Shown here in pieces: positions 30,490 through 31,221 of a stretch of DNA of 64,000 nucleotides (its first letter is position 1; each line of letters starts with the position of its first letter). The notes below the pieces were generated by a model. The model searched no databases. It had not been told where the DNA came from and saw nothing but the letters and a program-made list of their open reading frames with translations. The translations under genes were made by a program, and so were the position numbers. The stretch spans positions 27,759 to 91,758 of the forward strand of contig CAVYBP010000003.1 of assembly GCA_963766775.1 (NCBI GenBank). Reading direction: 5' to 3'. The DNA comes from an uncultured Phycisphaerales bacterium (lineage in GTDB: Bacteria; Planctomycetota; Phycisphaerae; WQYP01).

Positions 30490-31189
30490 TAATCGGGATA
30501 GGGAGGAGCCTCACGGCTCCACCCCTCCCACACCACCGTGCGTACGGGTCCGTACACGGCGATTCGGTTGGTTAGCGAGTCAACTGAACCGCTAGCGTTG
30601 TTCAGTCCACTCTGACTTCCGGTTGCGCCCCGCCGACCACAGACTGTTTGGCTCTCGCGGCCTTTGGGTCAGCTTCACCGACCCGCATCTCCGCATAGGC
30701 CCGACTTGCGTCGAGTTTTCTGCCACAGGGCTGCGGATACTTGCGTCCTTCGTCCATCCCATACCGTTTGGGCCTTCCCTGTCCAACGGCCAGTGGCCTA
30801 CCGACAGGTACTACGCCCGCTGCTGACTTCTGCCCGGCGATCAATGGCCCTTGCGAGCCACCCAGTTCCGACGACGCGTCGAAACAGCCCGACAGATCTC
30901 CCGAGGTAAGTTCGACCGCCTTCCACGCACGACCGCCGGATTTACGCTCTGCGCCCTTGATGGATATGGGCTTCGCGGTCACTTGATGGATATGGGCTTC
31001 GCGGTCATTTGCCCGCTCGCCCGACGCTCACGCCTCTGATCCGGTTCTTGTACATCAGCCCGCGTCTTTGCCTCCAGCTTCTTTCAGACCTCGCCTCGCG
31101 ACGACGCCCTTGCTCTTGGCTAACCCTTCACCTCCATCAGGTCGGGTAGAGGACTTGCACCTCCAAACTGTCGAACATGCTCGGCACAC
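30490..31189 (-). ncRNA. Group II intron ribozyme without an RT ORF (about 700 nt)
   Basis: On the minus strand, GTGTGCCGAG begins at 31189, 10 nt after a terminator hairpin. Conserved-looking segments are GCGAGGCGAGGTCTGAAAGAAGCTGGAGGCAAAG (31066-31099) and GGGGCGCAACCGGAAGTCAGAGTGGACTGAAC (30600-30631). A domain V-like hairpin TCGCCGTGTACGGACCCGTACGCACGGTGG lies at 30533-30562 with a 2-nt AC bulge. A domain VI-like hairpin with a GTGA loop follows. No ORF here has RT motifs. Confidence 0.65.
30956..31007. repeat. Perfect 26-bp tandem duplication (CTTGATGGATATGGGCTTCGCGGTCA x2) inside the ORF-less intron
   Basis: Read directly: 30956-30981 equals 30982-31007. Confidence 0.9.
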
Positions 31190-31192
31190 AAA

Positions 31193-31221
31193 TGAAAAAG
31201 GGCCGCCAGTTACGGCGACCC
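31193..31221 (-). terminator. Rho-independent terminator-like hairpin downstream of the tRNA-Pro fragment
   Basis: Minus strand GGGTCGCC-GTAACT-GGCGGCCC (one G-U pair) followed by TTTTTC. Confidence 0.6.

Follow-up and report, generated by a model that had tools for sequence, protein, structure and literature searches.

An ORF-less class C group II intron behind a terminator-like hairpin in an uncultured Phycisphaerales bacterium, most likely a non-autonomous passenger

Group II introns that lack a protein gene raise the question of what they still are: working ribozymes, elements served by a protein from elsewhere, or remnants in decay. The question is posed here by about 700 nt of the minus strand in a 64-kb stretch of DNA (the window) from an uncultured Phycisphaerales bacterium. 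The first-pass annotation of this DNA had described a class C (IIC) group II intron without an open reading frame (ORF), located just 3' of a terminator stem-loop, and had proposed a covariance-model run, a secondary-structure fold and a search for exon pairings. Three Rfam group II models matched above their curated gathering scores when the whole window was searched. RF02001 (group-II-D1D4-3) was found at 31105-30911 (112.5 bits, E 3e-22, gathering threshold 32), RF01998 (group-II-D1D4-1) at 30865-30771 (46.7 bits, threshold 35), and RF00029, which describes domains V and VI, at 30564-30492 (44.0 bits, threshold 40). The three matches are collinear on the minus strand, and all other group II matches in the window come from another, unrelated intron located at about 23.1-21.3 kb. 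No second copy of the IIC intron was detected in the 64-kb window by blastn. The Rfam matches, the terminator scan, a profile of relatives and the pairing of EBS1 with IBS1 all support the first reading, and minus-strand positions 31189-30492 are confirmed as a complete, ORF-less group II intron of class C with a length of 698 nt.

The ends of the intron were set by alignment with 12 ORF-less relatives from plasmids and genomes, and they match the group II rule (5' GUGYG, 3' AY), with GUGUG at 31189 and ...GAU at 30492. The exon sequences that meet at the insertion site are CCCTTTTTCATTT on the 5' side and TATGGCACTT on the 3' side. The span given at first, 30490-31221, thus contained the element but not its exact ends, as the true end is 30492 and 31221 takes in the exon hairpin. 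Two segments had also been quoted as resembling domains I-III. The first of them indeed lies in domain I (31092-31066), but the second belongs to the domain IV stub (30631-30600). The features of the locus are collected in Table 1.

Table 1 Features of the intron locus, with positions counted along the window
Feature	Position	Strand	Description and basis
Whole intron	30492-31189	-	698 nt, from 5' GUGUG to CCCGAU 3'; Rfam and alignment with relatives
5'-exon stem-loop	31195-31226	-	Stem GGGTCGCC / GGCGGCCC, loop GTAACT, then TTTTT; terminator scan and sequence
IBS1	31190-31195	-	UCAUUU, final six bases of the 5' exon
EBS1 loop	31005-31010	-	AAAUGA; the ORF-containing profile has AAATGA as its consensus here
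EBS3	30942	-	A, intron position 248; pairs with the first 3'-exon base
IBS3	30491	-	U, first base of the 3' exon
Domain I	30901-31184	-	Contains the RF02001 match; helices 1-15 75-100% paired, with many compensatory changes
Tandem duplication	30956-31007	-	Perfect 26 nt, TGACCGCGAAGCCCATATCCATCAAG twice (31007-30982, 30981-30956), in domain I
Domain II	30825-30900	-	Consensus and single-sequence fold; overlaps the RF01998 match 30865-30771
J2/3	30819-30824	-	Directly upstream of domain III
Domain III	30770-30818	-	Rfam and covariation-supported consensus
Domain IV stub	30565-30766	-	202 nt, without an intron-encoded protein gene
Domain V	30532-30563	-	32 nt, CGC triad, 2-nt bulge, 3-bp distal stem; RF00029; 100% paired in 8 relatives
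Domain VI	30494-30530	-	Bulged A at 30499, 7 nt before the 3' end
tRNA 3'-half-like fragment	31224-31286	-	T-arm and acceptor strand, with a 14-nt tandem repeat TCGCCCCGATTGGA; sequence
Gabija pair ("OLD cassette")	25977-30216	-	gajA/gajB (OLD/UvrD); PADLOC
Second group II intron	about 21276-23125	-	In an IS66 tnpC gene, exons 20392-21275 and 23126-23803

The hallmarks published for class C are a small size, CGC instead of AGC in domain V and a distal stem shortened by 2 bp, as well as an AGGAA sequence in the epsilon' bulge, an EBS3 of the IIB-like type, a short IBS1-EBS1 pairing and the lack of EBS2 (PMC1702495). All but one of them, the AGGAA bulge, are found in the window intron. The hairpins of domains V and VI, the former with its 2-nt bulge and CGC, had been correctly recognized at first sight, but CGC and the shortened upper stem were regarded as oddities. 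Since both are listed as defining features of the class (PMC1702495), they are not defects. The epsilon' bulge is present and reads AAGAA due to a G to A change at 31082; the same variant occurs in one relative (L053), and the other relatives have AGGAA. ORF-containing relatives encode a protein with RVT_1 and GIIM domains and without an endonuclease domain. An encoded reverse transcriptase (RT)/maturase that lacks the endonuclease domain also counts among the criteria of class C, and the window copy encodes no protein at all. The protein characterizes the retroelement form, and a copy without it, like this one, is by definition "ORF-less".

Insertion of IIC introns takes place 3-11 nt behind a terminator stem-loop (PMC1702495). 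On the minus strand of the window, the hairpin with its T tract, the ten nucleotides that follow it (TTTTTCATTT) and GTGTGCC at 31189 were all found as first described. Counted from the final C of the GC stem at 31200, the splice site is 10 nt away, which is within the published range. An equivalent hairpin is located in front of all 12 ORF-less relatives and, judged by eye, of nearly all of 27 metagenomic relatives. A metagenome scan for the EBS1 region yielded 33 contigs, mostly with ORF-containing copies, and nearly all metagenomic copies are preceded by a GC hairpin with a T-run whose last bases are ...TTT. In the window copy, EBS1 and IBS1 are complementary at six out of six positions. 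The two also covary across 71 introns of the subfamily, with a mean of 3.69 contiguous pairs compared to 1.46 +/- 0.16 when the exons were shuffled among the introns (0 of 2000 shuffles as high). EBS3 was assigned to the domain I column with the best complementarity to 3'-exon position +1 (72%, with four variants, in 46 introns). A second exon-binding loop (EBS2), searched for by inspection only, was not found in the window intron, and the exon hairpin takes up the position of IBS2.

The secondary structure was derived with RNAalifold from eight ORF-less relatives, resulting in a six-domain fold with 178 consensus pairs. Over these pairs, 94% of the cells are paired, and compensatory changes occur in 72 of the 178. 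None of 500 shuffles reached any of these measures, and pairing fell to 37-46% when partner columns were slid by one to three positions. The single-sequence fold of the window intron (minimum free energy (MFE) -302 kcal/mol, z = -3.6 relative to shuffles) reproduces domains II, III, V and VI. The fold and the pairing search proposed at the outset thus gave six domains, together with EBS1/IBS1 and EBS3/IBS3. All six domains are present in the window intron, including the ribozyme core of domains I, II, III, V and VI with J2/3. The window copy satisfies 149 of the 178 consensus pairs, the lowest fit among the eight sequences. Loss of pairing in domain II and helix 12 was considered and set aside as an alignment-register effect: the GCGUC/GGCGC pair is found in a shifted register, and domain II folds well singly. 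Domain IV is also short of consensus pairs in the window copy; the register explanation covers only domain II and helix 12.

What is missing from the intron was determined by comparison with 16 relatives that contain the ORF, combined in a profile of about 1,877 positions. The profile matches intron positions 1-208 and 208-519 (profile 1-477) and 609-698 (profile 1788-1877). Profile positions 478-1787, which hold the protein gene, are absent, so that the roughly 1.3-kb RT/maturase ORF of the relatives is lacking. In its place are 89 nt (intron 520-608) that match nothing. The first ~96 nt and the last ~17 nt of the domain IV stub match domain IV of the ORF-containing relatives. A protein remnant was not found in the element by tblastn with five proteins of the intron's lineage, and the ORFs of the element have no Pfam match, in agreement with the first-pass statement that no RT ORF fits in the approximately 700 nt. 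A resemblance of the domain IV stub to the intron protein, suspected by eye, was rejected, as Smith-Waterman comparison of the element, translated in three frames, with the N-termini of the proteins gave scores within the range of shuffles. In two relatives (L036 and L003, intron positions ~407-460), the protein frame appears to open with a conserved MRQK(I/N)QLELAL, in which case AUGCGGCAGAAAAUCCAG, a conserved RNA motif of the domain IV base, would double as the gene start. The ltrA genes annotated in relatives such as L004 begin later than this position. The window intron has GTG at the position of the relatives' ATG.

Intron-encoded proteins bind domain IV and the core of their own intron specifically. 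A helper in trans had been proposed 8 kb away in the RT at 21283-22608, with the remark that its ribozyme looked unrelated. The remark was right: this RT belongs to the other group II intron of the window, whose domain I is of the RF01999 type and whose 34-nt domain V is of the AGC type, and which is not located behind a terminator. The proposal draws on the presence of an RT/maturase-like gene (RVT_1 and GIIM) on the same strand within 9 kb, which might splice or mobilise the IIC intron from about 21.3-22.6 kb. However, the RT comes from another intron class, its identity to the proteins of the IIC intron's lineage is 30-42%, and its coding sequence, as assembled, is split over three frames. 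Indeed, tblastn recovered it as three pieces in three frames, and Pfam found RVT_1 positions 1-107 in one ORF and 145-204 with GIIM in another. The housekeeping genes further to the right are intact, and the frameshifts are therefore probably real; one of them, located at a GGGG run, may be a sequencing error. With or without real frameshifts, this RT is not the cognate helper, and its service to the IIC intron is scarcely credible. The second intron is inserted in the IS66 tnpC gene between the codons for ...KYGDH and LPLHRLE, and its last RT frame stays open through domains V and VI into the transposase exon.

The intron sits between the hairpin of the tRNA fragment and gajA, in a region (positions 1-34 kb) that looks like a mobile island. 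The island contains polymorphic-toxin cassettes, IS21, IS4 and IS66 elements, the Gabija pair, a split serine recombinase and the tRNA fragment, and intact housekeeping genes are found to its right. The two TCGCCCCGATTGGA units of the repeat lie at 31251-31238 and 31237-31224, and the hairpin targeted by the intron follows directly. A whole tRNA is not present. A 44-nt part of the tRNA-fragment region matches att-like cores of mycobacteriophages with 88% identity. The fragment and the repeat are probably the remnant of an integration site and mark the border of the island. Beside the fragment, the serine recombinase (Pfam Resolvase; 32838-33915, minus strand) occupies two overlapping ORFs and is apparently frameshifted. 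At the far left (40-8688, plus strand), three large DUF5122 beta-propeller proteins are encoded. One of them carries PT-HINT and AHH nuclease toxin domains and is followed by an Imm11 immunity gene, which looks like a polymorphic-toxin locus.

The Gabija pair deserves attention since the intron had been suspected of affecting its transcription. gajB is intact (25977-27878). gajA is split in two overlapping ORFs, at 28573-30216 (profile positions 1-492 of 736) and 27875-28594 (507-730), which points to a frameshift near 28585. Located 276 nt upstream of gajA on the same strand, the intron could have been co-opted as a regulator of Gabija, e.g., as a structured leader, an attenuator or the source of an outward promoter. 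Outward promoters are found in some IIC-attC introns (PMC3001079). However, the promoter-like site of this locus (30398-30369) lies between the intron and gajA, and none was found inside the intron on that strand. OLD/UvrD homologues were seen at 0 of the ~150 related intron loci listed, and gajA itself is split by the frameshift. Co-option is therefore judged highly improbable, and the proximity to Gabija is best read as a coincidence within an island collecting mobile elements.

The loss of the protein gene is not peculiar to the window. A scan with a domain V pattern was carried out on one genome per species, and copies were counted when domain I and domain V lay on the same stretch. Among the matches listed, 33 of 44 copies contain the ORF, 10 lack it and one is intermediate. 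The ORF-less introns among these matches measure 624-731 nt and come from Rhizobium, Latescibacterota, Acidobacteriota, Deltaproteobacteria, Gammaproteobacteria, Rhodothermales and Gemmatimonadota; in the ORF-containing ones, the distance from intron start to domain V is about 1.8-1.9 kb. ORF-less and ORF-containing copies are intermingled in a neighbour-joining tree of domain I and domains V/VI. Moreover, one Latescibacterota copy (L016) equals another (L036) minus a clean deletion of 1,214 nt, the flanking parts being 95% and 92% identical. The tree and this pair argue for a recurrent and recent loss rather than one old ORF-less lineage, and, as judged from these sequences, ORF loss in the subfamily is a matter of independent clean deletions. 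The window copy branches alone on the tree, and the nearest ORF-containing relatives among the matches listed share 72-81% identity with it in domain I.

Some ORF-less copies have also moved. Two of them (L001 and L047), 98% identical, occupy different sites in two Rhizobium species, and one Rhodothermales genome holds two copies, with ORF-less relatives forming tandem arrays there. Near-identical ORF-less relatives at different sites imply mobilisation in trans. Several arrangements were observed besides these. In L088 (265-4649), L093 (1171-3163) and L109 (1569-2896), each copy is located immediately downstream of its predecessor's domain VI hairpin. A subfamily intron in L150 (about 2351-2428) follows directly on the 3' end of another copy, ...CCCGA being joined to TTGTGCC. 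L139 (2166-3258) is an intermediate copy of 1.09 kb with only part of the ORF deleted.

As for the state of the window copy, its most conspicuous trait is the 26-nt duplication in domain I. It opens inside EBS1 and ends 14 nt before EBS3, shows up as a 25-nt insert in the RF02001 alignment, and is found only in the window copy and in none of about 70 relatives. Despite the duplication, the MFE fold retains the native EBS1 hairpin. At highly conserved ribozyme columns, the window copy deviates in 12 of 228, with a family range of 0-13. This count is at the high end, yet within the range of ORF-containing, presumably active, relatives. Domains V and VI, J2/3 and the 5' GUGUG are intact, and both exon pairings are perfect, so the copy could still be active. 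Nothing depends on its removal, as it lies between genes. Given its fresh duplication and several substitutions at conserved positions, it is most likely in decay, a passenger of neutral effect in a mobile island that is itself degraded.

Taken as a whole, the intron is most likely a non-autonomous, possibly inactive retroelement. With good confidence, it can be described as a IIC intron minus its RT/maturase gene, i.e., a non-autonomous deletion derivative of a widespread subfamily that has most likely become a neutral passenger in decay. The intron or its ORF-containing parent would have entered the site by reverse splicing. The ribozyme would have recognized the terminator-like hairpin behind the tRNA remnant, with EBS1 AAAUGA pairing with UCAUUU and the EBS3 A with the next U at insertion. 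If transcribed, the RNA could fold and perhaps excise itself, mainly by hydrolysis. In vitro, splicing of IIC introns is generally hydrolytic (PMC4748821). Self-copying would be impossible. To move or to splice efficiently, the intron would depend on a cognate IIC protein from another part of the genome; no gene for such a protein was found within the 64-kb window.

Activity without any protein has been described in ORF-less IIC introns termed HYERs. HYERs act as hydrolytic endonucleases without a protein and recognize a site of 6 nt; HYER1 has a length of 637 nt (bioRxiv 10.1101/2024.08.31.610620; PMC12990946). In its sequence features, the window element fits this definition: it is a IIC intron of 698 nt without an ORF, its EBS1 spans 6 nt and its domain V is intact. 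It might thus be an active ribozyme of this type, cleaving RNA or ssDNA at a 6-nt target by sequence-specific hydrolysis, and have spread or been kept for this activity. In their Science report of 2024, Liu et al. are said to have found HYERs in multiple copies in their genomes. The frequency of ORF-less relatives, with two copies and tandem arrays in the Rhodothermales genome, would agree with this picture. In contrast, the window holds a single copy in 64 kb, with a duplication between EBS1 and EBS3 and AAGAA instead of AGGAA in epsilon', and the ORF-less relatives seem to be recent independent deletion derivatives, not one conserved ORF-less lineage. A HYER-type activity of the window intron is therefore considered unlikely. 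It is very unlikely that the window RNA and the recurrent ORF-less derivatives of its subfamily are active protein-free ribozymes of the HYER type that cut or invade nucleic acids with UCAUUU/U behind a hairpin, with the position next to Gabija in a defence island being no accident.

Regarded as a decaying deletion derivative, the intron can be compared with several known systems. With HYERs, it shares the architecture of a IIC intron that measures about 640-700 nt, has a 6-nt guide loop and encodes no protein, and its ORF-less relatives are likewise common and multi-copy in some genomes. Unlike them, the window copy is worn and alone in its 64-kb window, and the likeness to them is drawn from these features. 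ORF-less IIC introns have thus already been described, and the window intron is a further example and not a discovery. Like B.h.I1 of Bacillus halodurans and class IIC, it is inserted at a terminator and uses IBS1 and IBS3 without EBS2 (PMC1702495). It also shares with IIC introns the CGC and short distal stem of domain V, the small ribozyme and, in its relatives, the RT/maturase without endonuclease (PMC1702495). It differs from them by having no protein and a 202-nt domain IV stub, by an EBS1/IBS1 pairing of 6 bp instead of the usual 3-4 bp, and by the AAGAA epsilon' and the 26-nt duplication in domain I (PMC1702495). ORF-less bacterial group II introns were long thought to be rare and dependent on proteins of related introns acting in trans (PMC4424553). 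The window intron resembles these in being a deletion derivative of an ORF-containing lineage. In contrast to the rarity stated in that review (PMC4424553), about a quarter of the copies among the matches listed here are ORF-less, and no cognate protein gene lies in the 64-kb window.

In annotations, "non-coding group II intron" is the appropriate label for this region, and the RT close by should not be presumed to be its helper. The locus itself is of modest importance, as a clean, fully mapped ORF-less IIC intron with both exon pairings. In the subfamily, loss of the protein gene is recurrent and affects about a quarter of the copies among the matches listed, in several phyla. It proceeds by independent clean deletions, and the ORF-less forms continue to move. 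Such recurrent loss fits the recent work on HYERs and contrasts with the older view of ORF-less bacterial group II introns as rare.
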